A DNA stretch of 64,000 nt from assembly GCA_965368975.1 (NCBI GenBank), contig CBDUPA010000001.1, forward strand, positions 320,001 through 384,000. Reading direction: 5' to 3'. A program made the position numbers and the translations under genes. Positions 610 to 57,190 of the stretch are shown here, in pieces. How positions within the stretch are numbered: position 1 is the first letter of the stretch; each line of letters opens with the position of its first letter. The notes below the pieces were generated by a model. The model was not told where the DNA came from. It did not search any database and saw nothing but the letters and a program-made list of their open reading frames with translations. Source of the DNA: an uncultured bacterium (lineage in GTDB: Bacteria; Acidobacteriota; Thermoanaerobaculia; Multivoradales; JAHZIX01).

Positions 610-623
610 GGTGGATCGGACCG

Positions 624-798
624 CCAGCCACCCTCAGAGGGCGCAGACCCCTGCGCCCCTACAGACCCTCGCCCCCGCCCGAACGTTACGCATGGCACGA
701 GTGTTTTCACTGTTGCGTACGTTTCCGCCTGCGTACCGTTCGGGGGTTTGGGTGGGGCCGTAGGGGCGCAAGGCATTGCGCCCTCCGGGGTGGGTGGT
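624..798. repeat. REPIN-like inverted pair of GTAG-type REP hairpins (left of RAYT)
   Basis: Minus-strand REP 637-662 (reverse complement GTAGGGGCGCAGGGGTCTGCGCCCTC) and plus-strand REP 760-785 (GTAGGGGCGCAAGGCATTGCGCCCTC). Bases 624-700 are identical to 1354-1430. Confidence 0.85.
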
Positions 799-809
799 AA
801 ATTCCAGGC

Positions 810-1322
810 ATGTATCCTCGACCTGGGCGCCATTCCACCAGGCTGCGTGGTTATGACTATGCTGCTGTAGGTGGTTACTTCGTGACGATCTGCACCTTCG
901 AGCGCCAGTGCGTCCTTGGCAACATCACTGAGGCCGGAGTTGCCCTGTCGTTGTTCGGCAAGATCGTTCAGGAAGAATGGTTCGCTTCTGCACGTCTGCG
1001 GCGGGAGATCGAACTGGATGCGTTCGTCATCATGCCCAACCATGTTCATGGAGTTCTGTTCTTGTTGGGACAGCCACCGCTTCCCCCTGAAGGACCCCAG
1101 CGTAGACCTCGGTCCTTGAGCACGTTTGTCAGTGGATTCAAGAGTGCCTGCTCTCGCCGAATCAACGCCCTGCGTGGCACGCCGGCTGGCCCAGTCTGGC
1201 AGCGCAACTTTCACGATCGGATCGTACGAAACCAGGATGAACTCCAGGCAATCCGGAGATACATCGAGGAGAATCCGCTCCGTTGGGCCGTCGATTCGGA
1301 GAACCCGGCATTGAATCCTTGA
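810..1322 (+). mobile_element. REP-associated tyrosine transposase (RAYT, Y1 HUH family)
   Basis: RLRGYDY...YFVTICT N-terminus, HUH motif MPNHVH, WQRNFHDRIVR and YIEENP (catalytic Tyr). Flanked by REP pairs. Confidence 0.92.
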
Positions 1323-1353
1323 ATTTGCGCGGATGTTCCGCGTAGGGACCGTC

Positions 1354-1570
1354 CCAGCCACCCTCAGAGGGCGCAGACCCCTGCGCCCCTACAGACCCTC
1401 GCCCCCGCCCGAACGTTACGCATGGCACGAATGTTCCTGTGCATCTAACGTTGTCAGGGTCGGGCACAGACGAGATTCACGCCCGAACGTTCCGCATGGC
1501 ACGACCGTTTCTGCTCACGTATCGTTCGGGGGTTGGGTGGGGCCGTAGGGGCGCAAGGCATTGCGCCCTC
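1354..1570. repeat. REPIN-like inverted REP pair (right of RAYT)
   Basis: Minus-strand REP 1367-1392 and plus-strand REP 1545-1570. An extra partial internal copy GCCCGAACGTTCCGCATGGCACGA lies at 1481-1504. Confidence 0.85.
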
Positions 1571-1596
1571 TGGGGATGGGCGGGTGTTTGGTCTGC

Positions 1597-3144
1597 TCAC
1601 CGCCACCAAACCGACCGCAACCCCAACAACTCCCCGCTCGGATAGTTGACATACCCCTCGACGTCGGCCGGCATGACCGCGAAGTTCACGCGCGTATACA
1701 GGCTGATGTAGGGCAGGTCCTCTTTCAGGATCTCCTGCACCTCCAGGTAGATCGGCATCCTTTCTTCCGGCAACGTCAACCGTGCCCCTTCTTCGACCAG
1801 CGCGTCGAAGCGTGCATTCCGGTAGTGGCCGCGATTCTGCCCATTCGGTGGTAGTGCGTCCGAGTGCAGCACCAGGCGGTAGATGTTGGGGTCGATGATG
1901 CCGGTGCGGATTAGGGAGAAGAGCTGGAAGTTGCCCTTGCGTACGTCGTCGTAGAAGGTGGCGAATTCGTAGGAACGGATCTCGATGCCGATCCCGGCTT
2001 GCGCGGCCATGGACTGCAGGATCTGCGCTTGCAGCACATAGGGCTCGCTGGTCGACGTCTTGTAGGTCACCGTGAAGCGCATCTCGGGCCCGTCGCCGTC
2101 CGGGTCGGGATAGCCGGCTTGGTCGAGCAGGCGCTTGGCGGTCTCGACGTCGTAGGGGATGGGTTCGAGGTCCGGGTGCCGTGCCCACAGGCCGGGGGGG
2201 ATCATCGTCTCGCCGACCACGCCGAGGCCGTTCCACAGCGTGTCGACGAGCTTCTGCCGGTCCAGGCTGAGCGCCAAGGCGTGCCGCACTCGAGGGTCGC
2301 CGAGAATCGGGTCTTCGAGGTTGACGCCGAGATAGGCGTAGTTGGCGCCCGGGCTCTCGACGACCTGGAAGTGTGGGTTGCGGCGGAAGAGCGGCACGGC
2401 GTCAGTGGAGAGGTCGTTGACCACCAGGTGGACGGAGCCTTTGAGCAGTTCGAGCGCGCGCACAGTGGCGTCGGGGACTTCGCGCAGGAGGACGCGGTCT
2501 AGATGCGGGCGGCCTTGCCAGGCGGCGTCGAAGGCGGCGAGTTCGACTGTCTCGGGGGTGCGCGAGACGAAGCGGAAAGGGCCGGTACCGATGGGGTGAT
2601 CGTTGAGCTGTCCGGAAGTGCTGCCGGCGGGGATGATGCCTTGACCCGGGGTGAATTCCGGCAGCAGGGCGCCGAAGGGTTCGCGCAGGAAGACATCAAC
2701 CGTCAGCTCGTCCACGGCTTCCAGGCGCTCGACCGTTTCGAAGCTGGCGCGCTTGGTGGTGGCGACGGTGTCGTCGAGGATGGAGCCGTAGGTCCACACG
2801 ACGTCCGCAGCGCTGAACGGGCGCCCGTCATGGAAGGTGACACCGGGACGCAAGTAGAAGCGGTAGCGGCGACCGTCGTCGAGGATCTCCCAGGCGGTGG
2901 CGAGGTCGGGGACCAGGTTGCCGGCGGGATCCTTGGTGACCAGGCCGTTGTAGATCAGCTGGAATACTCGTGCGGACGCCTGGTCGGCACCGACGCGCGG
3001 GTCGAGATGCAGGGGAGCGGAGGACTGGGCGACGACGAGACGGTTGTCGATCGGGGGCGCGGGACGGCGATCGTCGAGGCAGGCGGTGGTCAGGAGGGTG
3101 AGGAGGACGAGGGAGGCAGCGACGAGGGACGTTGAGGTGCGCAT
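1597..3144 (-). CDS. ABC transporter substrate-binding lipoprotein, DppA/OppA (SBP family 5)
   Basis: Lipobox-like LTTAC, LVPDLATAWE, LRPGVTFHDG, IGTGPF and DPRVRHAL. Start placed at ATG 3144 (MRTST); the ORF-track extension overlaps the next gene. Confidence 0.92.
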   Translation of the reverse strand: MRTSTSLVAASLVLLTLLTTACLDDRRPAPPIDNRLVVAQSSAPLHLDPRVGADQASARVFQLIYNGLVTKDPAGNLVPDLATAWEILDDGRRYRFYLRPGVTFHDGRPFSAADVVWTYGSILDDTVATTKRASFETVERLEAVDELTVDVFLREPFGALLPEFTPGQGIIPAGSTSGQLNDHPIGTGPFRFVSRTPETVELAAFDAAWQGRPHLDRVLLREVPDATVRALELLKGSVHLVVNDLSTDAVPLFRRNPHFQVVESPGANYAYLGVNLEDPILGDPRVRHALALSLDRQKLVDTLWNGLGVVGETMIPPGLWARHPDLEPIPYDVETAKRLLDQAGYPDPDGDGPEMRFTVTYKTSTSEPYVLQAQILQSMAAQAGIGIEIRSYEFATFYDDVRKGNFQLFSLIRTGIIDPNIYRLVLHSDALPPNGQNRGHYRNARFDALVEEGARLTLPEERMPIYLEVQEILKEDLPYISLYTRVNFAVMPADVEGYVNYPSGELLGLRSVWWR

Positions 3145-3246
3145 GACGTGGCGGGATGCTAGCACTCCAGCAAATCCACCTAGCCCCCGCCGCCGTACCC
3201 AGATAGGATCAGCCACACGTATCCCGCAATCCGATTCTGGAACCCG

Positions 3247-3987
3247 ATGACGCACGCTTTCGACTCCGCTCCTGCTCGCCACCGCCCCGCCCGCCGGGCC
3301 GTGCTGCTCTTTGCCCGCCGGCCGGGTGAGGAGGCGCGCCGCAAGCACTTGACGCGGGGCAAGCGGCTGTTCGAGCTGGGACGCGACCGGGTCTTGACGG
3401 CGGCGGCGCAGCTACCGGACGTGACACCGGTGTTGCTCGGCGATCCGGGGGACGCGACATTGCCCGCCGGGACGCTCGTGCTGGCGCAGCGAGGCCGTGG
3501 CTTCGGGGCGCGGCTCGGCAACGGGCTCGAGGATGCCTTCGCGCTCGGCTTCGACGAGGTCGTGGCCGTCGGTCTCGACGCGCCGTCGCTGTCGGACGAG
3601 CATCTCGACGCGGCGTTCCGTGCGCTGCGCGAGGCGCCGGTGGTGCTCGGGCCTGCCGCGGACGGTGGCGTCTATCTGCTCGGCCTCCGTGCCGAAGCGG
3701 ATCGGGTCGCGCTCTGGCGTGGCGTGCGCTGGCAGACGCGTTTCGTCCTGCGGCAACTGCAGCTCAACGCGCCAGCTCGAGTGCTGCCGCAAGTCTTGAC
3801 CGATGTCGACCAGCGCGCCGACGCCCAGCGTCTCGCCCGTTTCCTGGTGCGCGACTTCGAGTTGCGTGTGGTCTTGGAAGCGCTCTTGGCGCGGCCGTGG
3901 ACCCCGGCTCTCTCTTTCCTGCCGGCGCCGCTCTGGTGCCCCCACCTGCCGCTCTCGCGACGCGGACCTCCCGCGCGGGTTGCCTGA
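3247..3987 (+). CDS. DUF2064 / TIGR04282-like glycosyltransferase-fold (CofC-like) protein
   Basis: LLFARRP, QRGRGFGARL, VGLDAPSL, VLGPAADGGVYLLG and LTDVD match the family pattern. Confidence 0.8.
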   Translation: MTHAFDSAPARHRPARRAVLLFARRPGEEARRKHLTRGKRLFELGRDRVLTAAAQLPDVTPVLLGDPGDATLPAGTLVLAQRGRGFGARLGNGLEDAFALGFDEVVAVGLDAPSLSDEHLDAAFRALREAPVVLGPAADGGVYLLGLRAEADRVALWRGVRWQTRFVLRQLQLNAPARVLPQVLTDVDQRADAQRLARFLVRDFELRVVLEALLARPWTPALSFLPAPLWCPHLPLSRRGPPARVA

Positions 3988-4054
3988 ATCCGCGCTGTTT
4001 CGACCGTCTGACGCATTCCCTCTTTCCGCTATCCGTCGACCTGGAGGTCTTCCC

Positions 4055-7042
4055 ATGCTCGCATCCGTGGGCCGTCCGGCCCTTCGTCTCGCCCTGTCGT
4101 CTCTCCTGACTCTCGCCGCTATCCTGCTGCTCAGTGTGCCAGCCATGGCGCAAGCTAATCTCGAAGTCACCGTGGTCGACGCCGCCGACGGCGCACCGCT
4201 GCCCGGCGTTGCGGTCGCCCTGTTCAACGATGCCACCGGTTACCGCGTCGAGCAGGTGTCTAATGTGCAGGGCAAGACGCGGTTCTCGGCCTTGACCACC
4301 GGTGATGGCTACCAGCTGGTGACGCAGCCGTTCGACGGCTATCGCGAGGCGCGCGCGGAGGCGATCACGTTGCGCACGAACTTTGACAGCGCGGTGACGT
4401 TGCGGCTGCCGCGGGTCGAGACCTTCAGCGACGACGTGCTGGTGACCGCCGAGCGCCAGCTGGTGGCGATGAACACGGTCAACGCGGAGGTGTCGTCGAC
4501 GCTGGTGTCGGAAGAGCTGGAGCTGCTGCCCATCGAGGGCCGGGACTTGACGCGCTCGCTCTACCGGCTGCCCAACGTGACGCAGGCGACCGGCTTCTAT
4601 CCGGAGGCGCCGAACGTGTCGATCAACGGCGCCAACTCGTTGTTCACCAACTACCTGATCGACGGTCTGGACAACAACGAGAACTTCCTCGGCGGTCAGA
4701 AGTTCGCGCTGCCGCTGGGTGCGGTGCAGGACGTGACGGTGCTGACCAGCACTTACAGCGCCGAGTTCGGGCGCACCGGCAATGGTGTCTTCAACGTCAC
4801 CAGCCGTTCGGGCAGCAACGATCTGCGCGGTGAGGCGTTCTACCTCAGCCGGCCCGGTGCCAAGTGGGATTCGTCGTCACCGTTCGCCGGGCGCGACCTG
4901 AGCGGCAATGCGGTGAAGGACGGTTTCCGTCGTGATCAGCTGGGCTTCTCGCTCGGTGGTGCGCTGACCCAGGACCGCACCTTCTTTCATCTCAACGTGG
5001 AAGGCACGCGCGACGAGAAGGACAACCTGCTCAACGTGCCGGCGCTGGGTGTCAACGAGACGGTGCCGGGCGAGAACGAGTTCCTCTACGCCTCGGCACG
5101 CTTCGACCACCGTCTCACCGAGTCGTTGCAGACGTCGCTGCGCGTCAACTGGGGTGATGTCGACATCGAGCGCCAGGGGGGCGGGCTCGACGGCGGCGTG
5201 ACGTTCCCGTCGGCCGGCAACTTCCAGGACCGCGACTCACTGCTCGCCGCCTTTCGCACCAGCTGGGTGGGTCGTGACTTCGTCAATGAGGCGAATGTGC
5301 AGTTCAGCCGCTTTCGCTGGAACTATGGCCGGCCGATCGACGAGGGACCGCAGGTGACGGTGCTCGGGGCCGATGGCCAGACGGTGGCGGTGCTCGGGCA
5401 TCCGGGCTACATCTTCGACGACATCGAGGAGACCTTCCAGGTACAGGAGAAGGCGTCGTTCCTGCTCGGCAATCACACGCTGAAGCTGGGGGCGGAGCTG
5501 ATCTCGTCGGACTTCGAGCTGACCGGTGGTGGCAACGTCAACGGCAACTACCTGGTGCAGCTGAGCGCCGCGCAGGAGGCGGCGCTGCGGGCGCGGAACC
5601 TGGGCTCGTCGCTGAACGTCAACGACATCCCGTCGAACGTCGACGTGCTGCGCTACGACGTCGAGCTGCAGCCGAAGGCGTTCGGCGAGCGGCAGGACTA
5701 CTGGAGCGCCTACGTCGAGGACCTGTGGTCGGTGTCGCCGCGCCTGAATGTGACGCTCGGCCTGCGCTACGACTACGACAGCCTGAGCGAGGGCGGTGGT
5801 GCCAGTGGCGATTCCGACAACTTCGCGCCGCGGCTGGCGCTCAACTACCAACTCGATGACCGCTCGACGCTGCGCGCCGGCTTTGGCGTTTTCTACGAGA
5901 AGGTTGCCTATGCGATCTACAGCGATGCGCTGCAGCAGAACTCGACGTCGGCGGGCTTCCAGTGGCAGGTGCAGCAACTGATCGACCTCGGCTTGCTGCC
6001 GGCGGGCACGAATCTGGGCGACGTGCTGTTCAACGGCAACCTGGTGGCCAGCTTCGACGACGTGCCCTACCTCGGTGGTCCGACACCGGCCGAGGTGCAG
6101 GCGCAGCGCGAGGCCGTGTTCAGCAATGAGCGGCGTATCCTCAACCCGAACGGCTACGACAACCCGGTGACCGAGCAGTACTCGCTCGGCTACCAGCGGC
6201 GGTTGCGTTCGGACATGCTGTTCTATGTCGACCTGATTCACACGCGTTCCTACAACCTGCTACGCCTGCGCAATCTGAACGCGGCGGCGCCGTATCCGCT
6301 CGACGATCCGAACAATGTGGTGGTGCGCACGCCGGCCGAGGCGGACGCGACGCGACCGGTGCCGCTGGTGGACGGTGGTGCACGCAACATCGTGATGACG
6401 GAGTCGGAAGGCGAGGCGCGCTACAAGGCAGCGACGTTCAGCTTCCTGAAGGACCGCACGTCGAAGAGCCCGTTCAGCGTCCGCTTGTCGTACACCTGGT
6501 CGCAGCTGGAGAACGACACGGACGACATCAACTTCCGGGCCCAGGACGCCAACAATTACGCCGCCGAGTGGGGGCCGTCGGTGAATGACCGCGAGCACGT
6601 GGTCAGCGGTTTGTTGCAGTACTACGTGACGCCGGATCTGTCGGTGTCGTTGGCGGGGCTGTGGCAGAGCGGTCAGCCGATCAACCGCATTCCGGACGCG
6701 CGTCTGTACGGCACGACGGACTTGAACGGCGATGGTCGCTCGTTCGGTGACGCCTATGTGGGCAACAGCGACCGCTACCCGGGAGCGTCACGCAATGTCG
6801 ACCGGCTACCGTCGTCGGAAGTGTGGGACCTGGGTATCCAGTACCGGCTGCCGATGGCCGGCAAGCGGATCGAGCTGCGGCTGGATGTGTTCAATCTGTT
6901 CAACGAGACGAATCTCTCGGGCTTCAGCAACAATGCGACGCAGAGCAACCAGATCCAGATCGGGCCGCCGGGGTCGGGGATCGAGTTCAAGAATGCGGGG
7001 CCGCCGCGGCAGTTCCAGATTGGGGTGTCGTATGCGTTCTGA
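4055..7042 (+). CDS. TonB-dependent outer-membrane receptor (Oar-like, N-terminal carboxypeptidase-regulatory-like domain)
   Basis: GGAGG at 4043-4047 before ATG 4055. Signal peptide AMA-QA, plug motifs NYLIDGLDNN and YSAEFGRTGNGV, NFAPRL, C-terminal PRQFQIGVSYAF. Confidence 0.92.
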   Translation: MLASVGRPALRLALSSLLTLAAILLLSVPAMAQANLEVTVVDAADGAPLPGVAVALFNDATGYRVEQVSNVQGKTRFSALTTGDGYQLVTQPFDGYREARAEAITLRTNFDSAVTLRLPRVETFSDDVLVTAERQLVAMNTVNAEVSSTLVSEELELLPIEGRDLTRSLYRLPNVTQATGFYPEAPNVSINGANSLFTNYLIDGLDNNENFLGGQKFALPLGAVQDVTVLTSTYSAEFGRTGNGVFNVTSRSGSNDLRGEAFYLSRPGAKWDSSSPFAGRDLSGNAVKDGFRRDQLGFSLGGALTQDRTFFHLNVEGTRDEKDNLLNVPALGVNETVPGENEFLYASARFDHRLTESLQTSLRVNWGDVDIERQGGGLDGGVTFPSAGNFQDRDSLLAAFRTSWVGRDFVNEANVQFSRFRWNYGRPIDEGPQVTVLGADGQTVAVLGHPGYIFDDIEETFQVQEKASFLLGNHTLKLGAELISSDFELTGGGNVNGNYLVQLSAAQEAALRARNLGSSLNVNDIPSNVDVLRYDVELQPKAFGERQDYWSAYVEDLWSVSPRLNVTLGLRYDYDSLSEGGGASGDSDNFAPRLALNYQLDDRSTLRAGFGVFYEKVAYAIYSDALQQNSTSAGFQWQVQQLIDLGLLPAGTNLGDVLFNGNLVASFDDVPYLGGPTPAEVQAQREAVFSNERRILNPNGYDNPVTEQYSLGYQRRLRSDMLFYVDLIHTRSYNLLRLRNLNAAAPYPLDDPNNVVVRTPAEADATRPVPLVDGGARNIVMTESEGEARYKAATFSFLKDRTSKSPFSVRLSYTWSQLENDTDDINFRAQDANNYAAEWGPSVNDREHVVSGLLQYYVTPDLSVSLAGLWQSGQPINRIPDARLYGTTDLNGDGRSFGDAYVGNSDRYPGASRNVDRLPSSEVWDLGIQYRLPMAGKRIELRLDVFNLFNETNLSGFSNNATQSNQIQIGPPGSGIEFKNAGPPRQFQIGVSYAF

Positions 7043-8375
7043 GATCTTGCTGGGCCGCCGGAGGGGGAGTGCTGCGGGCGGTGCTCCAACTCACGGCGCT
7101 GCGCGCCGCTCAAACAGAAGCGCTCCGTCCTCACACTCCCTCTCCGGCTCCTCACTTCTTGGGGTGATCACTGGGATTCTGCTGTCGACTCTCGTGCTGG
7201 CTTGCGGCCCAGCTCAGGATGAGGGGTTGACGGGGGAGGACGTCTTGGGGCTGCCTTGGGAGCAGGTGGTGGAGGAGGCGCGGGGGGCTTCGCTGACGCT
7301 GGGGATGTGGACGGGGGATCCGTACATCAACGCCTACATCCAGGACTACGTCACACCGGCGCTGCGCGCGCGCTATGACATCGAGCTGGACGTGGTGAGT
7401 GCGCAGGGCAACGAGGTCGTCAACCTGCTGTTGACCGAGATCGAGGCGGGCAAGGCGACGAGTGAGCTCGACTTCGTGTGGATCAACGGCGAGACCTTCT
7501 ACCAGCTGCGCCAGATCGATGCGCTGCTCGGGCCGTTCACGGACAAACTGCCGTCGGCCCAGTACATCGACTACGACAACCCGTTCATCGGCACCGACTT
7601 CCAGCAGCCGATCGAGGGCTACGAGGCGCCGTGGGGCAATGTGCAGCTGGCCTTGATCTACGACGCTGAACGCGTCGAGACGCCGCCGCGCGACGCCGAG
7701 GAACTGGCCGCGTGGGTGCAGGCGAATCCAGGACGCTTCACCTTCGATACCTCCTTCACCGGCATGACCTTCCTGAAGTCGCTGCTGATCGACTTCGCCG
7801 GTGGCCCCGGGTCGATGGACGGGCCGTTCGACGAGGCCACCTACCAGCGGGCGAGTGCACAGTTGTTCGCCTACCTGAAGGAGCTGCAACCGTTCCTGTG
7901 GCGCGAAGGCTCGACCTTCCCGGCGCAGGTGGCGGAGCTGCACCAGCTGTTCGCCCATGGCGAAGTCGACTTCACGATGAGCAACAACGACGGCGAGGTG
8001 GACAACAAGGTGCTGCAGGGACTGCTGCCGCTGTCGTCGCAGGCGTACGTGCTCGACTCCGGGACGATCCAGAACAGTCACTACTTCGGCCTGGTGCGTC
8101 GTGGTGGCAGTACGGCGGCGGCGTTGGTGGCGATCGACTTCCTGCAGTCCCCGGAGGCCCAGTACGAGAAGCTGAAGCCGGCGGTGTGGGGGGACGGCAC
8201 GGTGCTGGACGTCGAGCGCTTGCCGCCAGAGTGGCAGGAGAAGTTCCGCAACGTACCGCAGCGCGAGCGCGCACCGCGGCGCGAAGAGATCCGCGAGAGG
8301 GCACTCGAGGAACCGGCGGCGGAGGTGATGATCCGACTCTACGACGACTTCCGCCGCGAGCTACTGGGGGCCTGA
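7032..8375 (+). CDS. ABC transporter substrate-binding lipoprotein, YnjB-like
   Basis: Lipobox VLAC, DFVWINGETF, EAPWGNVQ, ANPGRFTF, FTGMTFLK and WGDGTVLD. Start uncertain: ATG 7032 overlapping the upstream stop, or GTG 7164. Confidence 0.82.
   Translation: MRSEILLGRRRGSAAGGAPTHGAARRSNRSAPSSHSLSGSSLLGVITGILLSTLVLACGPAQDEGLTGEDVLGLPWEQVVEEARGASLTLGMWTGDPYINAYIQDYVTPALRARYDIELDVVSAQGNEVVNLLLTEIEAGKATSELDFVWINGETFYQLRQIDALLGPFTDKLPSAQYIDYDNPFIGTDFQQPIEGYEAPWGNVQLALIYDAERVETPPRDAEELAAWVQANPGRFTFDTSFTGMTFLKSLLIDFAGGPGSMDGPFDEATYQRASAQLFAYLKELQPFLWREGSTFPAQVAELHQLFAHGEVDFTMSNNDGEVDNKVLQGLLPLSSQAYVLDSGTIQNSHYFGLVRRGGSTAAALVAIDFLQSPEAQYEKLKPAVWGDGTVLDVERLPPEWQEKFRNVPQRERAPRREEIRERALEEPAAEVMIRLYDDFRRELLGA
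7057..7148. repeat. About 92-bp palindromic element (terminal inverted repeats plus inner hairpin)
   Basis: GCCGGAGGGGGAGTG (7057-7071) matches the reverse complement of CACTCCCTCTCCGGC (7134-7148) at 14/15 positions. Inner hairpin CGGCGCTGCGCGCCG. Confidence 0.55.
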
Positions 8376-8380
8376 CTCCG

Positions 8381-9274
8381 TTGGCGTCGCGCACTCAATC
8401 TCGCAACGGGTCGCGCAATAGGGCTCGAGCGCTCGCCGTCCCGGATGTCGTGGGACTTGGGCTGCTCGGGGTCGTGGTGGCGGCGCCGGTGGTGTTCAGT
8501 CTGGTCTACGCAGCGCTGTACAGCCTGGGTTTGACGGGACTGCTGAGTCAGGGCTTTACCCTGGAGCATTGGCGGGCAGTGCTGGGCAGCGGCGAGATCT
8601 GGGCGGCGTTCGGCCTGTCGCTCTACGTGGCGGTGAGCACGATGGTGCTGACGTTCGGCCTGGCGCTGGCGTTGGCGCTCGGTTTGCGCGAGCCGCTGCG
8701 CCACGGGCCGTTGTCGACCTTGATCTACCTGCCGCTGGCGTTGCCCGGGGCGGTGGCGGCGTTCTTCACGCTGCAGATGCTGTCGGGTGGTGGCTTGCTG
8801 GCGCGGTTGCTGGCGGCGGTCGGGGTGGTGGAGGAACCCTCGGCGATGGTGTCCCTGGTGCACGATCGGTTGGCGGTCGGCATCGTGGTGGCGCACGTGA
8901 TCGCGGCGGTGCCGTTCTTCACGCTGCTCTTCGTGCAGCTCTACGATACCGAGCGGGTGGGGGAGTTGCGACGCCTGGCGGTGTCGCTGGGAGCCAGTCG
9001 CTGGCAAACGGTGCTACGCGTCGCGATGCCGGTATTGCTCTATCGAGCGTCGACCAACCTGGTGCTCTACTTCATTTGGGTCTTGGGGTCGTTCGAGATT
9101 CCGTTGCTCTTGGGTCGTCAAGCACCGCAGATGCTGTCGGTCGTCACCTACCGCAAGTTCTCGATGTTCGACCTGATGGAGAAGCCACAGGCCTACGTCG
9201 TGGCTCTGCTCTACACCCTGCTGGTGTTCGTGATCCTGGGAACAGTGTTCGGCCGCCAGGAAGCCCGTTCGTGA
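8381..9274 (+). CDS. ABC transporter permease (YnjC/PotB-like)
   Basis: Multiple hydrophobic segments, EAA-like loop LAVSLGASRWQTVLRVAMP and SFEIPLLLG. TTG start inferred. Confidence 0.85.
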   Translation: MASRTQSRNGSRNRARALAVPDVVGLGLLGVVVAAPVVFSLVYAALYSLGLTGLLSQGFTLEHWRAVLGSGEIWAAFGLSLYVAVSTMVLTFGLALALALGLREPLRHGPLSTLIYLPLALPGAVAAFFTLQMLSGGGLLARLLAAVGVVEEPSAMVSLVHDRLAVGIVVAHVIAAVPFFTLLFVQLYDTERVGELRRLAVSLGASRWQTVLRVAMPVLLYRASTNLVLYFIWVLGSFEIPLLLGRQAPQMLSVVTYRKFSMFDLMEKPQAYVVALLYTLLVFVILGTVFGRQEARS

Positions 9275-9339
9275 GGCAGAACCCCGCTGGCGGCGCCGCG
9301 ATGGTAGGAGCGGGTCATCGTGGCAGATGTTGCAGATAT

Positions 9340-9379
9340 TGCCATGTTGGCTTGGGCGTGCCATGATTTGTTGGGCGTG
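9340..9379. promoter_or_regulatory. Imperfect 19-bp tandem repeat, possible antitoxin operator
   Basis: TGCCATGTTGGCTTGGGCG then TGCCATGATTTGTTGGGCG, about 45 bp upstream of the AbrB-type antitoxin gene. Confidence 0.35.
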
Positions 9380-9422
9380 GATTTTGCTCGCAAAGAAGGA
9401 TCACTTGAGAATGGAGGCCAGT

Positions 9423-9689
9423 ATGATCGGCGCAACATCCCACCAAGTTCGTCTGAGCGGCCAGGGCCGAATTGTCATTCCCTCGGAGCTGCGGCGTCAG
9501 CTCGACCTGGAAAAAGGAGAGACGCTCGTCGCCCGTGCCGAGAGCGGCAGGTTGATCCTGGAGAAGCGTGGCAGTATCCTGCAGCGTCTCAAGGCACGCT
9601 TCAGGGCTGTGCCGGCGGATATCCGTCTCTCCGAAGAACTCATCGCCGATCGACGGCAGGACGCCGCACGGGAGCGTGAGGATGGTTGA
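9423..9689 (+). CDS. vapB: AbrB/MazE/SpoVT-family antitoxin (VapB-like)
   Basis: QGRIVIPSELRRQLDLEKGETL swapped-hairpin signature. GGAGG at 9413-9417. Overlaps the PIN gene. Confidence 0.85.
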   Translation: MIGATSHQVRLSGQGRIVIPSELRRQLDLEKGETLVARAESGRLILEKRGSILQRLKARFRAVPADIRLSEELIADRRQDAAREREDG

Positions 9690-10089
9690 AGTCGCTGCGG
9701 ATCGTGAGCGCGTCTACGTCCTCGATGCATCCGCGCTTCTAGCCATGCTGCGGGAAGAACCCGGAGGCGAGATCGTCGAGGCCGTTATCGAGAACTCCTT
9801 GCTCTGCGCCGTCAATTGGTCCGAGGTCGTCCAGAAGGCGATCGCCTACGATCTCGATGCGGAGGCAATCCGGGCCGACCTCGAAGCGCTTGGGTTGCAG
9901 ATCGTTCCTTTTACCGCAGAAGACGCCGAGACCGCCGCCGAGCTTTGGCGGGTGACGCATACCCACGGCCTGTCGCTCGGTGATCGGGCTTGTCTCGCGC
10001 TCGCCGGGCGTCAGAAGCTGCCCGCGTTGACGGCCGACCGAGCGTGGGGCGGCCTGCCGATCGATCTGTCGATCGAGTGCTTGCGTTGA
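9682..10089 (+). CDS. vapC: VapC PIN-domain toxin
   Basis: VLDASALLA, NWSEV, LSLGDRACLA and LTADRAW PIN motifs. Confidence 0.9.
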   Translation: MVEVAADRERVYVLDASALLAMLREEPGGEIVEAVIENSLLCAVNWSEVVQKAIAYDLDAEAIRADLEALGLQIVPFTAEDAETAAELWRVTHTHGLSLGDRACLALAGRQKLPALTADRAWGGLPIDLSIECLR

Positions 10090-10931
10090 CCTCGACCTCC
10101 GACGGTGGGGGTCACAGAGGACGGAGTAGCAAGAAGTTTCTTCCCATCCGTTCCGCCTCTTCGTGGCTTGTAGGTGCACTGTGCATCTTCCCCCTCCTCT
10201 TCCTGGCCGCCCTCTCCCTGTCCCATCGCTGGCAAGTCCCCCACATCCTGCCCACCGGCTTCGATCCCAGCCGCTGGCAAGAAGTCCTCACCGGCCAAGG
10301 CCAGCTGGGTGAAAGCTTGGCGCTCTCCCTGACCCTCTCCCTCAGCGTCGCGACCCTGAGCACCGTCGCCGGCTACCTGACCTCGCGCGCCATCGCCTAC
10401 TCCCCGCACCGGCGTCAGCTCTTGTTGCTGGCCTACATCCCCTTCGCCTTCTCCCCGGTCATCCTCGGCACCTGCCTGCTCTTCCTGTTCATCAAGCTCA
10501 ACCTCGCCGGCACCGTCCCCGGCGTCATCCTGGCGCAGACCCTCTTCTCCTACGGCTTCGCCATCGTCTTCTTCATGAGCTTCTGGACGCCGCAGAAGAA
10601 GGCCTACGAAGACCTCGTGCATACCCTCGGCGGCAGCACCTGGGACGCCTACCGCCACGCGCTGTTACCCTTGTCCACCGGTATGCTCCTCGTCTGCTTC
10701 TTCCAATGCTTCCTGATCTCCTGGTTCCACTACGGCATCACCCTGCTCGTCGGTTCCGGCAAGATCAAGACCCTGCCGCTCAAAGTCTTCGACAGCATCC
10801 GCGAAGCCAACCCGTACTACGCCGCCCTCGCCGCCTGCCTGCTCGTCCTGCCGCCCTTCCTCCTGCTGCTGGTCAACAAACACTTCCTGCCCGAACCTCT
10901 GCGTGACCCTGGGGAAGGGGCCCGAGTATGA
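10086..10931 (+). CDS. ABC transporter permease (second membrane subunit)
   Basis: Hydrophobic segments, YEDLVHTLGGS EAA-like loop, LLVGSGKIKTLPL. TTG start overlaps the vapC stop (TTGA). Confidence 0.82.
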   Translation: MTSTSDGGGHRGRSSKKFLPIRSASSWLVGALCIFPLLFLAALSLSHRWQVPHILPTGFDPSRWQEVLTGQGQLGESLALSLTLSLSVATLSTVAGYLTSRAIAYSPHRRQLLLLAYIPFAFSPVILGTCLLFLFIKLNLAGTVPGVILAQTLFSYGFAIVFFMSFWTPQKKAYEDLVHTLGGSTWDAYRHALLPLSTGMLLVCFFQCFLISWFHYGITLLVGSGKIKTLPLKVFDSIREANPYYAALAACLLVLPPFLLLLVNKHFLPEPLRDPGEGARV

Positions 10932-11701
10932 GCGAGCGCGTCCTGCTGTGCGTCGACGGCCTGCGCAAGGCCTTCGCCGGCCAAGGTAGCAACGCGAGTG
11001 AAGCTGTGTTGCACGACGTCACCTTCGACCTGCACCAGCACGAGACCCTCGCCGTCGTCGGTCGCTCGGGCAGCGGCAAGACCACCCTGCTCAGAATCCT
11101 CGCCGGCCTCGAAGCTCCCGACGCCGGCAGGTGTGTCCTGGGAGGGCGCGACCTGGCAGGGGTAGCACCTCAGCAGCGTGGCGTGCTCTATCTCTACCAA
11201 GAGCCCCTGCTCTTCCCCCACCTCGACGTGCGCGCCAACCTCGCCTTCGGCCTGCGCTTGCGCAAGGTGCCCGCTGCCGAGGCACGCCAGAGAGTCGACG
11301 CCATGCTGCGCGAGCTCGACCTCAGCGAGCATGCGGCCAAAGCCCCGCACCAGCTCTCCGGCGGTCAGCGCCAGCGCGTCTCCTTCGGTCGCGCGCTGCT
11401 CGTCGAGCCGCGCCTGCTGCTGCTCGACGAGCCCTTCGGTGCCCTCGACGCCGACACCCGCACCCGCATGCAAGACCTCTTCCGCCGCATCGCCGAGCGG
11501 TACCGCATCTCGGCCCTCTTCGTCACCCACGACCTCAAAGAAGCGATCCTCATGGGCGACCGCGTCGCGCACCTGCAAGCCGGCCGCCTGCGCCTCTTCG
11601 AACACCTCGAAGAGATGGTCGCCGACCCCGACCTCGGTGTGCGCCAAGAACTCGACTTCTGGACATCCCTACCTCGACCGACGCAAGGAGACGCACCATG
11701 A
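10928..11701 (+). CDS. ABC transporter ATP-binding protein (PotA/YnjD-like)
   Basis: Walker A GRSGSGKT, signature LSGGQ, Walker B LLLLDEPF, FVTHD. Confidence 0.95.
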   Translation: MSERVLLCVDGLRKAFAGQGSNASEAVLHDVTFDLHQHETLAVVGRSGSGKTTLLRILAGLEAPDAGRCVLGGRDLAGVAPQQRGVLYLYQEPLLFPHLDVRANLAFGLRLRKVPAAEARQRVDAMLRELDLSEHAAKAPHQLSGGQRQRVSFGRALLVEPRLLLLDEPFGALDADTRTRMQDLFRRIAERYRISALFVTHDLKEAILMGDRVAHLQAGRLRLFEHLEEMVADPDLGVRQELDFWTSLPRPTQGDAP

Positions 11702-13110
11702 CCGCTGCCCTCGAGTCCTCGTCCGCAACTCGGCTGACCGCTGTCGTCGTCGCCAACGGTCTCGAGGGGCTGCGGGAGTGCTTTCCCTGTTACGGGATTC
11801 CGGCTGCGGCGGGCGGGCAGACTCTGCAGGTGGACTACCGCTTCCAAGAAGTCGAGGCCGGCTTCCGTCTCGACCTCACCGGTGCTGATCTGCTGATCGT
11901 GCCCAACGGTAGCGACCACGTCGCGATGCTCGGTGTACGCGACCAAGTGCGCGCTTTCCTCGACGCTGGCGGTGCCGTCTTCTGCTTCGACGGCTGGTTC
12001 ACCGACTGGGTCCCCGGCCACCGCTGGCGTCACGACAACAGCAAGGCCACCCGCGACATCCGCTACCGCGTTGCCACCGACCGTCACGGCCTGTTCGATG
12101 GCATCGACCTCGACCCCTTCATCTTCCACCACGGCATCAGCGGCTGGTGGGCCTGTGGCGCCATCGAGCCGGCCGGAGGCGCCGACGTGCTGCTCGAAGA
12201 CACCTGGGGCCGCGCCATGGTCGTGCTCGACGAGACCACCACCCCCGGCTTGCTCGCGCTCACCGCCAGCGGTCCCCTGGCCGGCGCCCTGACCGACGAC
12301 GTGGGCGGTCCGGCTTTGGTGCCGCTGTATCACCGACTGTTGCACCGGGTCGCCGCGCACCGCGCCCGGCTCGATCACTGTCCGGGGGACCAGGTGCCCT
12401 CGCGGCCGGCGCGCGATGGTGCTTCCGACACCGACCCGTCCGCCAGGATCAACCACGACGCTCGTATCGGCGTGCTGTTCAACGGCGTCTGGTCGCAATA
12501 CGCCTTCGCCACCGCGCCCAAGTATCGCGGCCTCTACGACCTCGTCTACGTCCACGACCTGAGCTACGAACGCATTCGCCACCTCGACGCCCTCGTGGTC
12601 CCCTTCCAGAGCCACCAGCCGGCCATCACCGCGCGTCGAGAGGCGATCTACCGCTTCCTCGCCGACGGCAAGAAAGTCGCCGTCTTTGGTGATTCCGATA
12701 GCGACTGGATCGACGCCACCTGGGAGAGCCGCCCCGTCGACAACTACTGGTGGGTCACAGACCCGACGTCGCCGCCGATCAGCGATACCGACTACAGCCA
12801 CCCCGTCTATACCGGCCTGATCCCGCGCCATGCCTGCTGGCACGTGCACGGCGTCTACACGCAGGTGCCCGCCGAAGCCCGCGTCATCCAGCGCAACGAA
12901 GAAGGCGAATCGATCACCTGGCAGACCGAGGCCCACGGTGGCGTCCTCTTTGCCTCCACCCTCGACCCGATCGTCGAGCACGGCATCCAGCAGATCCGCC
13001 ACCTCGACAACTACTGCGACCGTCTCACCGCCTGGCTGTGCGGCACGACGCCTGGCGGTGCCTTCGCGCTCGACCCGGCCGTCTATGGCGTCGATCGCTT
13101 GGCCCTCTGA
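11698..13110 (+). CDS. Uncharacterised two-domain protein; tandem class I glutamine-amidotransferase-like folds (inferred)
   Basis: ATGA overlap with the ATPase. The halves are similar (DLLIVP...VRAFLDAGGAVF vs DALVVP...IYRFLADGKKVAVF) and joined by a linker. His-rich motifs FHHG and HACWHVHG. Confidence 0.6.
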   Translation: MTAALESSSATRLTAVVVANGLEGLRECFPCYGIPAAAGGQTLQVDYRFQEVEAGFRLDLTGADLLIVPNGSDHVAMLGVRDQVRAFLDAGGAVFCFDGWFTDWVPGHRWRHDNSKATRDIRYRVATDRHGLFDGIDLDPFIFHHGISGWWACGAIEPAGGADVLLEDTWGRAMVVLDETTTPGLLALTASGPLAGALTDDVGGPALVPLYHRLLHRVAAHRARLDHCPGDQVPSRPARDGASDTDPSARINHDARIGVLFNGVWSQYAFATAPKYRGLYDLVYVHDLSYERIRHLDALVVPFQSHQPAITARREAIYRFLADGKKVAVFGDSDSDWIDATWESRPVDNYWWVTDPTSPPISDTDYSHPVYTGLIPRHACWHVHGVYTQVPAEARVIQRNEEGESITWQTEAHGGVLFASTLDPIVEHGIQQIRHLDNYCDRLTAWLCGTTPGGAFALDPAVYGVDRLAL

Positions 13111-13165
13111 TCTGGCCCTCTGCTCTGGCCCTCTGACTAGGCCCTCTGACTAGGCCCTCTGACCT
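13101..13165. repeat. 5 x 13-bp tandem repeat
   Basis: GGCCCTCTG(A/C)xxx units start at 13101, 13114, 13127, 13140 and 13153, spanning the upstream stop codon. Confidence 0.9.
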
Positions 13166-13184
13166 GGTACGCTGAGACCCAACC

Positions 13185-14234
13185 ATGAACGATCCCTTGG
13201 CAGTCCACCTAGCAGTCCAAACCGGCCCCTCCAAACTCGAACAGGCTGACTACGACCACTGCGAGTCGGTCTACTGGGTGTTCACCCAACTGTGCAACGA
13301 CGAGTGCGATCACTGCTACAACCTCAGCGGCCCGCGCGGCGCGACCCTCACGCTGGAGGAATGCCTGGCCATCGTCGCCAACCTGCCGTCGCGCATCGAC
13401 CGCCTGATCCTCTCCGGCGGCGAGCCACTGGCCGAGCGCAAGAAGCTCTACGCCATCCTCGACGCTGTGCGCGAGCGCTACGGCGACGCCACCCAGGTCA
13501 TGTTGCAGACCAACGGCGACCTGCTCAACGAGCAGCGCCTAGACGAGATCCTAGAGCGCGGCGTCACGCGCATCGACATCGCCTCCATCGACCGCTACCA
13601 CAAGAAGCAAGGCGAGCGAAGAGCGGACCTCGAAGCCCTCTTTCGCTCGCGCGGCATGGTCGACGACAACCCCGATCCGCTGATCACCAAGGACGACTAC
13701 CTCAAGCCCGACGCCGCCAGCTTCGGCTTCTGGGGCGCCACCGAAGACATGTGGCTGGGTGGCAACTGGGCGCGTGGCCGCGCGATGGAGACGGGGATCT
13801 GGAAGCGCGACGGCAGTCACAACTTCTGCGCCATCCTCAGCGGCGGCCGCGGCTTCCTCGGCGGCACCGACCTGCCGCAGGAGATCTCGATCCAGCTCTG
13901 GCGCATCAACCCGTGCTGCCCCGGCACCAAAGAGCCGATGGGCGATGCGCGCGTCGAGAAAGTGAGTGACGTGCTGCGCCGGGTGGCCCAGTCGCCGGTG
14001 TTCCAGAAGCTCAACACAGGCGATGCGTACGCACTCGGAGAAGCGCTCGAGAAGAGCGATGGCGTCGATCGTGCCTACGGCCTGCGCCGCGCGCTCGAAC
14101 TTGGCAACGTCTGCCTGTGGTGCGACGAGTTCTTCGACCGTCACTTCGACATGGCGACGCTCGCCGAGAAACCCGCCGCACCGATCCCGGAGGGGCAAGT
14201 GGTGGCGAAGCCGGTGCTACCCGTCCTCCGCTGA
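13185..14234 (+). CDS. Radical SAM protein with Cys-rich C-terminal extension
   Basis: CNDECDHC (CxxxCxxC), SGGEP and QTNG. Extra Cys in NFC, NPCC and CLWC. Confidence 0.9.
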   Translation: MNDPLAVHLAVQTGPSKLEQADYDHCESVYWVFTQLCNDECDHCYNLSGPRGATLTLEECLAIVANLPSRIDRLILSGGEPLAERKKLYAILDAVRERYGDATQVMLQTNGDLLNEQRLDEILERGVTRIDIASIDRYHKKQGERRADLEALFRSRGMVDDNPDPLITKDDYLKPDAASFGFWGATEDMWLGGNWARGRAMETGIWKRDGSHNFCAILSGGRGFLGGTDLPQEISIQLWRINPCCPGTKEPMGDARVEKVSDVLRRVAQSPVFQKLNTGDAYALGEALEKSDGVDRAYGLRRALELGNVCLWCDEFFDRHFDMATLAEKPAAPIPEGQVVAKPVLPVLR

Positions 14235-15737
14235 AGCGTCCTCCGCTGAAGCGTCACCGGCTTCCTTGGCCGGACCCACGCGCTCCAGGATCCACGCCGT
14301 CACCGTGTCCAGGACTTGCGGCGCGATCGTCGTCTCGATCTCGGCGTACTCCTGGGCGCTTCCGGTCTTGGCCGGTTGCATCAAGTGATTGATTCCGGCG
14401 ACGGTCAGGATCGTCGCGTCGTCGTTGCCGGCGGCTTCGAGCGCGGCCTGAATCGCGGTCAAGTTCTGTTCGGCGTCGACCTGTGAGTCGAGATTGCCGT
14501 TGACGGCGAGCACAGGCGACTTGACCTGGCGTAGGGCAGGGGCCGGATCGTAGGCGATGAAGTGGCGGTACCAGGGAGTGAGCAGGGGCTGGATCTGGGC
14601 CGCCGCGGCCTCGGCGCCGATGAAGGGCGTCAGCTTGTCGATCAGCTTCTGCCGCAGCACGGCTTCGTCGGCCTCGCTCTCCATCAGGTCGAAGATCTGC
14701 CGCTGCAGCGCGGCGTTCTGCGACGCGACCTGCGGCGGCAAGCCGGCGGCCAGGTTGAGGCGCTCGACCTGGCGCACGATCAGGTCGTCGCCGGGCACGC
14801 CAGGAGCACCGAAGAAGACGTAGAAGGCGACCGAGACGCCGTACTTCTCGTGGAAGCGCTGAGCGGCGAGAGGGGCGATCAGGCCGCCTTCGCTGTGGCC
14901 CAGGATGCCGATCCGGGAAGTGTCGATCTCGAGCCGGCTCATGAGCGCATGCAAGCTGAGCGCGGCGTCGTCGGCGAAGTCGAGAATGGTGGCGTTGTCG
15001 AGCGGTCCCTCGGACTCACCGACGCCCCTGTCGTCGACGCGCAGGACGGCGATGCCGGCGCGAGCGAAGTGGTCGGCGAGCACCAGGAACGGCTTGTGTC
15101 CGAACAGAGTCTCGTCGCGATCTTGCTGGCCGCTGCCCGAAAGTAGCAGGATAGCGGGGTAGGGACCTTTGCCGTGGGTCTCCTCGTCGGGCAGCGTCAG
15201 CGTGGCGGCGAGGGTGACGGGGCCGTTGCTGGTGTCGTGGCCGTAGACGAGATCCTGGCTGCGATACGGGAAGGGTGGCTCGGGCGTCTGTGGACGCACG
15301 GGTGCGGCCGGTGCGGGCGCTGCGGGATCGGGACGCTGGAAGGTCAAGGGCAAGCTGGCGCCGCCCTGGTGAAAGGTGCCGACGATCTCGCCTTCCTGCA
15401 GGCTGCCTTCGAAGCGTGGCTCGCCCATGCCGGGCAGGGTGAAGCGCAGTTGGTCGCCCTCGACCTGGACGCTCGGCAGCGCCACGCCCTGGGCGCCTTG
15501 CTGCGGTACGTCGACGGTGCCGCTCCAGCTGCCGTCCTGCGCATCGAGGTGGATGTGGAAAACCAGGCTGCCGCCGGGAATCTCCAGCGTGCCCTTCCAG
15601 GAACCGTTCGCCCAGGTATCGTTGGTCTCCTGGCTTGCGGTGGGTGGTTCGTCTGTCGCAGGCCAGGGTGCGGCGATCAGCGGCACGCTCAGCAGAGCGA
15701 GGAGCAGGGGAGCGAGCAAGGCGATACGGGTTTTCAT
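14217..15737 (-). CDS. Secreted alpha/beta hydrolase (esterase/peptidase)
   Basis: Signal peptide, LSGSGQQDRDE, DDRGVGES, nucleophile GHSEGG, GNLDSQV and INHL triad motifs. Confidence 0.88.
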   Translation of the reverse strand: MKTRIALLAPLLLALLSVPLIAAPWPATDEPPTASQETNDTWANGSWKGTLEIPGGSLVFHIHLDAQDGSWSGTVDVPQQGAQGVALPSVQVEGDQLRFTLPGMGEPRFEGSLQEGEIVGTFHQGGASLPLTFQRPDPAAPAPAAPVRPQTPEPPFPYRSQDLVYGHDTSNGPVTLAATLTLPDEETHGKGPYPAILLLSGSGQQDRDETLFGHKPFLVLADHFARAGIAVLRVDDRGVGESEGPLDNATILDFADDAALSLHALMSRLEIDTSRIGILGHSEGGLIAPLAAQRFHEKYGVSVAFYVFFGAPGVPGDDLIVRQVERLNLAAGLPPQVASQNAALQRQIFDLMESEADEAVLRQKLIDKLTPFIGAEAAAAQIQPLLTPWYRHFIAYDPAPALRQVKSPVLAVNGNLDSQVDAEQNLTAIQAALEAAGNDDATILTVAGINHLMQPAKTGSAQEYAEIETTIAPQVLDTVTAWILERVGPAKEAGDASAEDASAEDG

Positions 15738-15768
15738 AGGTTTTCCATTCTACGGTGGGTGGCGCGTC

Positions 15769-16089
15769 TCAGGCGTCTTCGACCACGACCGCGGTGCCGT
15801 AGACCATCAGCTCGGCGGCGCCCTGGGCCACCATGGAGGTGGAGAAGCGGACTTCGAGGATGGCGTTGGCGCGCAGGCCGCGAGCTTCATCGACCATGCG
15901 GTCGAGAGCCTGTTCACGCGATTCGGCGAACAGCTTGGTGTACTCGCTGACTTCGCCACCGACCAGGTTGCGCAGTCCAGCCAGGATGTCGCGGCCGACG
16001 TGGCGGGCCCGGATGGTGTTGCCGCGCACCAGGCCGAGGGTGCGGGTGATGCGTTTGCCTTCGATGTGATTCGTGGTGACGATGATCAT
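15769..16089 (-). CDS. YbjQ / UPF0145 family protein
   Basis: MIIVTT...LGLVRG...GLRNLVGGE...SREQALDRM...YGTAV. Confidence 0.9.
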   Translation of the reverse strand: MIIVTTNHIEGKRITRTLGLVRGNTIRARHVGRDILAGLRNLVGGEVSEYTKLFAESREQALDRMVDEARGLRANAILEVRFSTSMVAQGAAELMVYGTAVVVEDA

Positions 16090-23327: not shown

Positions 23328-23343
23328 AGGGCAGCGGGTAGCA

Positions 23344-39414: not shown

Positions 39415-39498
39415 GATCCGGCAGGCGGTGGATGCCGGCCAGTTGAAGTGCAGGGCGGCACTGTGGCATTCTCCCGATGTCTTTTCTGTGCGAATACC

Positions 39499-57164: not shown

Positions 57165-57190
57165 CTGCCAGGGCTCCTTCATGCCGGGCG

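Follow-up and report, generated by a model that had tools for sequence, protein, structure and literature searches.

In a 64,000-nucleotide stretch of DNA from an uncultured bacterium of the Acidobacteriota (class Thermoanaerobaculia), hereafter the window, we find an operon that joins a TonB-dependent outer membrane receptor, an ATP-binding cassette (ABC) importer of the Escherichia coli YnjBCD type, a DUF2064 protein and an enzyme of the radical S-adenosylmethionine (SAM) type (rSAM) that fits no characterised family. The window is G000:C1:320001-384000, where G000 labels its own genome (7.1 Mb in 59 contigs, about 66% G+C). Sources assign its close protein relatives to Acidobacteriota or Thermoanaerobaculia. 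This is a real, widely conserved bacterial operon, apparently not yet described: no description of it was found in the literature, going by titles and abstract openings. Its transport route is genetically welded, across several phyla, to the new rSAM and to a divergent DUF2064 protein. The function that we propose, at slightly less than even confidence, is that the rSAM fills the slot of ArsS, the rSAM of arsenosugar biosynthesis, and acts on an imported substrate, so that the operon would provide an import-fed entry to the DUF2064/TIGR04282 pathway. That the cargo is an arsenic compound seems to us rather unlikely.

The initial annotation placed eight co-directional genes on the + strand between 3247 and 14234, aside from a vapBC insert. 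Scans of open reading frames (ORFs) and families find all eight in place, in a + strand run that is unbroken between two - strand flanking genes. Gene calls and starts were taken from Pfam and NCBIfam scans plus inspection of start codons. The features of the region are the following.

1597-3348, - strand: SBP_bac_5 protein, left flank.
3247-3987, + strand: DUF2064 protein of the operon type (PF09837, 80 bits).
4055-7042, + strand: TonB-dependent receptor, Oar-like (CarboxypepD_reg, Plug, OMP_b-brl_4, TonB_dep_Rec_b-barrel).
About 7032-8375, + strand: YnjB-like substrate-binding lipoprotein (SBP; NF008633/PRK11622).
8381-9274, + strand: ABC permease 1 (PermN; BPD_transp_1).
9339-9367, + strand: sigma-70-like promoter match before vapB (promoter scan).
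9411-9689, + strand: vapB antitoxin of the AbrB/MazE type (PF04014, 36 bits; TIGR01439, 33 bits).
9682-10089, + strand: vapC toxin, PIN domain (PF01850, 59 bits).
10086-10931, + strand: ABC permease 2 (PermC; BPD_transp_1).
10928-11701, + strand: ABC ATPase, YnjD-like short form (PF00005, 118 bits).
11698-13110, + strand: two-domain protein of 470 aa resembling ThuA and class I glutamine amidotransferases (GATase1), by the fold of an AlphaFold2 (AF2) model; no Pfam or NCBIfam family.
13185-14234, + strand: radical SAM enzyme (PF04055, 54 bits; Fer4_12).
14217-15737, - strand: alpha/beta hydrolase, right flank.

The start/stop overlaps reported at 10928/10931 and 11698/11701 are real when the translations are read, with an ATGA at the junction of permease 2 and the ATPase. 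The series that had been read from these genes, from outer membrane through periplasm and inner membrane to cytoplasmic enzymes, is borne out and is syntenic across phyla.

The evidence for the operon as a unit comes from gene order in other genomes. One genome per species was scanned for relatives of the rSAM: 393 stretches matched, 361 of them encode a relative, and our locus counts refer to the best 80 of these 361 loci, which come from Acidobacteriota, many Bacteroidota (Saprospiraceae, Lewinellaceae, Hymenobacter, Pontibacter, Cytophagales and Flavobacteriales), Kapaibacteria, Ignavibacteria and Chlorobiota. Contig ends truncate many of the 80, so that counts are better judged on the 55 full-flank loci, those having 8 kb or more upstream. 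By tblastn, the ATPase is found at 71 of the 80 loci and at 51 of the 55 full-flank loci, PermC at 65 and 50, PermN at 63 and 50, the SBP at 61 and 50, the receptor at 59 and 50, the DUF2064 protein at 34 and 32, the 470-aa protein at 17 and 14, and vapB/vapC at none in either set. The canonical one-strand order receptor-SBP-PermN-PermC-ATPase-rSAM holds at 45 of the 55 full-flank loci; at 4 the receptor directly precedes the rSAM with no ABC genes, and the other 6 are arranged differently. Where at least 1 kb is available before the receptor, a DUF2064 gene lies within 600 bp upstream of it at 34 of 49 loci. A minimal DUF2064-receptor-rSAM form recurs (L024, L039), and an rSAM subfamily at 50% identity (G324) occurs in a three-gene unit, rSAM-DUF2064-receptor, with overlapping genes; these forms indicate that rSAM, DUF2064 and receptor are the persistent core, usually accompanied by the ABC importer. 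Of the genomes with an rSAM ortholog, the two nearest are G002 (same family, 76% identity) and G030 (another family of the order, 75%). Each shows the order receptor-SBP-PermN-PermC-ATPase-rSAM and is without vapBC and the 470-aa gene; G002 has the upstream DUF2064 gene as well. The operon is rare: of 151 genomes sampled in each phylum, 2 Acidobacteriota and 4 Bacteroidota have it. Cultured carriers include Sulfidibacter corallicola M133, Acanthopleuribacter pedis KCTC 12899, Pontibacter oryzae KIRAN, Hymenobacter antarcticus JCM 17217 and Marinigracilibium pacificum KN852. The initial annotation had left synteny elsewhere as a point to check; the homologs are indeed syntenic, far beyond chance. 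When every ORF of 90 aa or more from these 80 loci was clustered, no further family appeared at more than 9 of them, and a Pfam scan covering 137 flank ORFs out of 214 (77 were omitted, 13 of these for length) returned mostly unrelated housekeeping genes. A search of sequencing runs listed none of RNA, and DNA runs with small shares only (0.05-0.07).

The transport genes are the best defined part of the operon. The receptor has an N-terminal CarboxypepD_reg domain, a Plug (35 bits) and barrel domains (OMP_b-brl_4, 235 bits; TonB_dep_Rec_b-barrel, 53 bits), and its translation shows a signal peptide and a terminal Phe, as befits a TonB-dependent receptor. The SBP, which starts at 7032 or 7047 (the choice is uncertain) and carries the lipobox LVLAC, scores 379.9 bits on NF008633/PRK11622 against a cut-off of 203 and shares 36% identity with E. 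coli YnjB over 327 residues (E 2e-65). PermN aligns to residues 18-235 and PermC to residues 303-489 of E. coli YnjC, that is, to its N-terminal and C-terminal halves, and the ATPase is 32% identical to E. coli YnjD. The YnjBCD-like label first given to the ABC part is thus correct, the SBP passing its family cut-off and the permeases being the two halves of YnjC. In NCBIfam comparisons the permeases and the ATPase resemble the Mod/Cys/Pot/Thi/Phn group. Taken together, receptor, lipoprotein SBP, two permeases and ATPase make up a complete route from the outer membrane to the cytoplasm. The annotation of E. coli YnjBCD states no substrate, and no characterisation of it was found in the literature, going by titles and abstract openings; KEGG labels it 'thiamine'. 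PDB sequence searches with the SBP and the receptor gave nothing useful, and the same search with the DUF2064 protein gave only the unannotated entry 3cgx. We also considered that YnjA might be a TIGR04169 member, which would link the ynj operon to the ArsS gene set; the E. coli control gave no TIGR04169 match and the idea was rejected.

The rSAM belongs to the radical SAM superfamily (PF04055, 54 bits against a cut-off of 29.5; CX3CX2C motif). Its C37-x3-C41-x2-C44 motif is invariant in 30 aligned sequences, and so are five more cysteines, C215, C244, C245, C310 and C313; an SGGEP motif is present as well. The C-terminal cysteines are placed for a predicted second Fe-S cluster and the modelled fold is BtrN/EpeE-like, which puts the enzyme in the twitch/SPASM subclass, although Pfam SPASM is not matched. 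No NCBIfam model comes near its cut-off: the best, NirJ, scores 44 bits against 515 and covers generic core residues 29-140 only, the weak top matches are the tetrapyrrole-modifying NirJ, AhbC and AhbD, and a HemN-type model is not among the 25 best of 42 matches. Across phyla its homologs share 60-77% identity, and their names go no further than 'radical SAM protein' or 'organic radical activating enzyme'; at E 1e-30 only 31 relatives occur among 1.84 billion cluster representatives, and an ESM Atlas search returned unnamed rSAM clusters only. The first description of the rSAM as unassigned holds in NCBIfam and the ESM Atlas. The enzyme is best described as a new, unnamed and highly conserved family of twitch type that is the anchor of the operon. 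An ArsS identity was tried and rejected: this family (TIGR04167) requires more than 300 bits and a C-terminal DUF3641, and the rSAM has no TIGR04167 match at E 0.001 and no DUF3641. One ortholog in Bacteroidota (G333:C51:81510-82421, 63% identity) has an in-frame TGA inside the match, whose possible causes are a sequencing error, decay to a pseudogene and a selenocysteine codon.

Structure comparison with an AF2 model of the rSAM (pLDDT 84) gives the peptide epimerase EpeE as the best match, clearly above the next (Z 18.6, 256 residues aligned), followed by BtrN (Z 14.4), SkfB, viperin and SuiB (about Z 14), MoaA (Z 11.3), HemN (1olt, Z 8.6) and queuine lyase (Z 6.8). The rSAM could accordingly be taken for a peptide or protein maturase, an EpeE-like epimerase or cross-linker working on an imported peptide or on a protein of the cluster, for example the R-G-P-P tail of the DUF2064 protein. 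The peptide maturases SkfB, SuiB and CteB do follow EpeE among the matches, and a C-terminal extension that the TIGR04282 profile does not have recurs in the DUF2064 proteins; nevertheless, BtrN, viperin, BlsE and SpeY, which act on small molecules, come close to the other peptide enzymes in score, no conserved small ORF lies beside the rSAM in the ORF clustering (whose 90-aa minimum puts very short peptides outside its scope), and the SBP is of the anion/thiamine-type cluster, not a peptide binder. An identity of 60-77% across phyla is moreover unusual for maturases of ribosomally synthesized and post-translationally modified peptides. We consider a maturase very improbable, and the modelled fold would not by itself tell the substrate. 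A complex prediction for the rSAM with the DUF2064 protein scored 0.00 and gives no verdict either way.

The DUF2064 protein is what connects the operon to the arsenosugar gene set. It had been labelled DUF2064/TIGR04282, and this label stands in part: Pfam membership is clear (the 80 bits on PF09837 compare with a cut-off of 25.8) and the protein is a paralog of TIGR04282, but with 84.4 bits against a cut-off of 134, and a match to profile positions 71-188 only of 189, it is not itself a member. All 18 operon-linked DUF2064 copies that were scanned behave alike, with 49-106 bits on TIGR04282. The operon-type DUF2064 protein has a C-terminal extension beyond the 189-position TIGR04282 profile, ending R/K-G/A-P-P, which is seen in the window (RRGPPARVA) and in L020, L024, L033, L043, L053, L075 and L111 (alignment A4).

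Several lines of gene context bear on a link to ArsS: (i), the canonical Bacteroidota ArsS operon has the order TIGR04169-ArsS-TIGR04282-TIGR04283, (ii), in G072 the ArsS cluster reads DUF547-oxidoreductase-DUF2064-ArsS-methyltransferase, the DUF2064 being of the sub-cutoff type, and in G197 a DUF2064 of this type precedes ArsS, (iii), DUF547 also adjoins the new operon in L021, L078, L082 and L086, (iv), true family members adjoin the operon as a TIGR04283-TIGR04282 fusion in L021 and as TIGR04282 in L031, and (v), ArsM adjoins it in L031/G200 and, by coordinates, in G212. In G000, TIGR04282 and TIGR04283 are each represented by one true member (145 and 226 bits, respectively), standing alone among housekeeping genes, and neither belongs to a dedicated cluster. 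The former (L103) adjoins an NAD(P)HX repair fusion gene; the latter (L104, G000:C4:338500-355100), the only one of the genome, is a divergent neighbour of moaC.

Genomes that carry the operon also appear to differ from their phyla in TIGR04282 and ArsS. Among 45 carriers other than G000, TIGR04282 occurs in 43, TIGR04283 in 26, ArsS in 8 and ArsM in 23, which with G000 included gives 44/46 for TIGR04282, 27/46 for TIGR04283 and 8/46 for ArsS. In the background samples, to whose tallies alone the unpublished genomes G063 and G088 contribute, TIGR04282 is over its cut-off in 53 of 151 Acidobacteriota (58 hits) and in 82 of 151 Bacteroidota (83 hits); ArsS occurs in 33 of the former and 49 of the latter, and ArsM in 63 of these Bacteroidota. 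Every ArsS-positive genome in the tables has a TIGR04282 hit (33/33 and 49/49). Conversely, TIGR04282-positive genomes without the new rSAM have ArsS in about 60% of cases (33/56 in Acidobacteriota and 49/79 in Bacteroidota) against 8/46 of the carriers, a contrast that is suggestive and not a statistic, since the genomes are related to one another.

A further arrangement supports the association of importers with such pairs. In G134, of the class of G000, a DUF2064 gene, an SBP_bac_6 gene, a fused permease gene, an ATPase gene and an rSAM gene stand in a row (L123, G134:C138:1-9000). This DUF2064 protein is 45% identical to that of the window, and for the rSAM an alignment to the ArsS profile (probability 96.7) extends over 260 columns and takes in the C-terminal Cys motif, whereas only a 105-column core aligns with the new rSAM family. 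Ten genomes holding TIGR04282 and lacking both ArsS and the new rSAM were tried, and 7 of them contain homologs of the G134-type rSAM; in G014, G109, G048 and G059 these lie close to DUF2064/TIGR04282 hits. The importer form was seen in one genome only. The G134 row is a predicted second, non-orthologous operon of importer, rSAM and DUF2064 protein; thus, as far as gene content goes, an ABC importer could feed an ArsS-like enzyme. Together with the ArsS pairings, it also indicates that DUF2064-family enzymes pair with at least three rSAM types.

We thus propose that the transporter delivers a scarce, probably small, anionic compound and that the rSAM would perform the first committed radical step on this cargo, most likely in the role of ArsS, which attaches the 5'-deoxyadenosyl moiety of SAM to its own substrate. 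The DUF2064 protein of the operon and the TIGR04282 and TIGR04283 enzymes of the genome would then process the rSAM product into a ribosyl-type conjugate, and import would take the place of the in-cell step by which ArsM prepares the substrate of ArsS. As cargo, a methylated arsenical would be conceivable, as would some other metalloid or oxyanion-like species. The ThuA-like two-domain protein may be an optional helper, and VapBC a selfish insert that was made part of the transcript.

A number of observations weigh against this proposal. Gene context is what points to ArsS-equivalent chemistry, because the rSAM shares only the core with ArsS and is without DUF3641 or TIGR04167: by hhalign only 105 N-terminal core columns align with the ArsS profile, and the nearest structure is that of a peptide epimerase. 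A search of the G000 genome found neither ArsS (best TIGR04167 match 40.6 bits) nor TIGR04169, and ArsM is not over its cut-off there. In these phyla TIGR04282 is frequent (35-54% of the sampled genomes), and the co-occurrence figures overstate independence, the carriers being related. ArsM shows no enrichment (23/45 carriers against 63/151 in the Bacteroidota sample), and eight carriers hold both ArsS and the operon, so that the two are not exclusive. Most loci have no adjacent arsenic-type gene, and high-affinity import of a toxic metalloid is physiologically odd. A regulatory clue such as a riboswitch was not found at the operon either: Rfam gave no riboswitch or RNA match in window positions 1-16000 at E up to 1, and only tRNA, with no riboswitch, at seven related loci.

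The scarcity of arsenic-type neighbours is also one of the reasons to consider that the operon might salvage a scarce but ordinary nutrient or cofactor, for instance a compound like thiamine, a metal chelate or a tetrapyrrole, and that the rSAM would open or remodel it outside the ArsS/TIGR04282 pathway. TonB receptors and SBP-dependent importers are typical of scavenging, the permeases and ATPase resemble the Mod/Cys/Pot/Thi/Phn group, the weak top matches of the rSAM are tetrapyrrole-modifying enzymes, and uptake-rSAM operons are known for heme, with a TonB receptor, an importer and a cytoplasmic rSAM acting on the cargo (PMC10114669, PMC10035031, PMC10404700). Such salvage would give no reason why, among non-transport partners of the rSAM, none is as constant as the DUF2064 paralog, or why TIGR04282 is near-universal and ArsS depleted in carriers; the NirJ-type matches cover the generic core only, HemN and queuine lyase are distant in structure (Z 8.6 and 6.8), and Rfam found no riboswitch. 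On balance we think this explanation unlikely.

The initial annotation had favoured another function, the uptake and catabolism of an unusual glycoside or nucleoside, possibly an organoarsenical. In this version the hypothetical cargo would be an environmental organoarsenical such as an arsenosugar, or a related 5'-modified riboside, and the rSAM would degrade it. The annotation's remark that no arsM or canonical arsS lies in the window is true and extends to the whole genome, where none exceeds its cut-off, so that G000 cannot start from arsenite by the canonical enzymes. Its arsenosugar lead as such has genomic backing in the TIGR04282 paralogy, the TIGR04282 genes of carriers and a few ArsM, TIGR04282 and TIGR04283 neighbours, although the DUF2064 protein lies below the TIGR04282 cut-off. 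The same paralogy and occasional neighbours would suit catabolism, a PNP/UDP-type phosphorylase stands beside one locus (L028), and a bulky glycoside would justify a TonB receptor. Preferring catabolism over biosynthesis is nonetheless not favoured by the genomes: no hydrolase, lyase or arsenic-resistance gene recurs beside the operon, carriers keep the presumed biosynthetic TIGR04282 and often TIGR04283, and the operon would sit in the slot of the biosynthetic ArsS. Catabolism is therefore, in our judgement, distinctly unlikely.

Two components of the window's copy are accessory. The 470-aa protein was first read as a tandem GATase-like protein and as one of the operon's genes, and the former reading agrees with its AF2 model (pLDDT 81), which has two predicted GATase1/ThuA-like domains. 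Foldseek matches are STM3548 (2gk3), the ThuA-like 1t0b and 4pxy and the GATase 2a9v, at E about 1e-5 and target TM-scores of 0.45-0.58; true class I glutamine amidotransferases have a Cys-His-Glu triad. A PDB sequence search gave nothing useful, and a search of 5.8 billion proteins yielded only 11 relatives, one of them with PF06283 (ThuA). As a core gene it does not stand, its presence being limited to 17 of the 80 loci; it is an accessory specific to the operon, a single fused gene in the window and in Sulfidibacter (L014) but two separate frames at 14 loci and mere remnants at 2, and it lies after the rSAM, before the SBP or before the ATPase.

The vapBC pair is likewise no regular part of the operon, being found at none of the 80 loci by tblastn. 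It is a type II VapBC system, with an AbrB/MazE antitoxin gene starting at ATG 9411 and a PIN gene overlapping it by 8 nt (9682-9689). The cassette (window 9275-10089) is inserted exactly between the permease genes, with its own promoter-like site, and local G+C falls to 0.61-0.64. The vapC stop overlaps the TTG start of permease 2 in a TTGA junction at 10086-10089; this TTG at 10086 is the only usable start, with no in-frame start between 10089 and the conserved region, from which it follows that the toxin-antitoxin cassette was absorbed into the translation of the operon, and permease 2 translation now looks coupled to the toxin gene. The promoter match at 9339-9367, the sole promoter-like site in 2900-14600, is weak evidence, since 0.9 sites are expected in shuffled sequence. 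The insertion did not split a fused permease gene, because G002 also has two genes.

Elsewhere in the window we noted a 929-aa fusion of an N-terminal SEFIR/TIR domain and a Ser/Thr protein kinase domain (39415-42201), a KaiC-like ATPase gene directly upstream of the gene for a 706-aa protein with an ATP-dependent DNA ligase domain (22041-25308), and a row of four paralogous FG-GAP/ASPIC-UnbV repeat proteins, one on the - strand (54392-62481), preceded by a sulfatase-TPR fusion (50723-53593).

Three orphans meet in this operon: the YnjBCD transporters, DUF2064 and an rSAM family that has no name. If the rSAM stands in for ArsS, the TIGR04282 and TIGR04283 enzymes would serve a chemistry broader than arsenosugar synthesis from arsenite, and some bacteria would import the starting material instead of making it. 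If it does not, the operon would still represent a conserved, undescribed form of uptake-coupled radical chemistry. It is tempting to speculate, although we hold it doubtful, that bacteria of several phyla actively scavenge an (organo-)metalloid, such as methylated arsenic or something chemically akin to it, through a TonB receptor and a YnjBCD-type importer and that the rSAM, with a substrate domain unrelated to that of ArsS, has convergently evolved 5'-deoxyadenosyl attachment, feeding the DUF2064/TIGR04282 and TIGR04283 enzymes, which would make ribosyl conjugates. Were this true, metalloids would be the first substrate class for the orphan YnjBCD family, and DUF2064 enzymes would be general partners of at least three rSAM types.

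Known systems each resemble the operon in part. With E. coli YnjBCD it shares the YnjB-family SBP, the YnjC halves and the YnjD-like ATPase; E. coli YnjC is one fused protein of 511 aa whereas the window has two permease genes, and the ynj operon contains DedA proteins, a ferredoxin-like protein and the AhpD-like YnjA but no receptor, DUF2064 protein or rSAM. Each half of the 470-aa protein shares the GATase1-like fold of ThuA and class I glutamine amidotransferase-like proteins, but it is a tandem of two such domains, has no Pfam match and is found only with this operon. EpeE (YydG), BtrN and SpeY are similar to the rSAM in overall fold and in the placement of the C-terminal cysteines, yet they are 15-18% identical to it, their NCBIfam cut-offs are not reached, and the rSAM has neither a precursor peptide nor an aminoglycoside cluster in its context. 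The ChuW/HutW rSAMs act on heme, as queuine lyase acts on queuine, and the ChuW/HutW/HmuW loci follow the same logic of receptor, importer and cargo-acting rSAM; these enzymes are class C HemN-like methyltransferases, whereas the window rSAM is of twitch type with a DUF2064 partner and matches HemN at Z 8.6 only.

The closest parallel is the ArsS-centred set (ArsM, ArsS/TIGR04167, TIGR04169, TIGR04282 and TIGR04283), in which, according to a preprint (bioRxiv 10.1101/2024.02.01.577332), arsenosugar biosynthesis has ArsS cleaving SAM at its adenosyl C-S bond. Like the window operon, this set pairs an rSAM with a DUF2064-family transferase, and in G072 and G197 the DUF2064 protein beside ArsS is of the very type found in the operon. 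The window rSAM is of another family, with a twitch-type C-terminus and no DUF3641, and at the point where the substrate would come from ArsM, the operon has a receptor together with an ABC importer.

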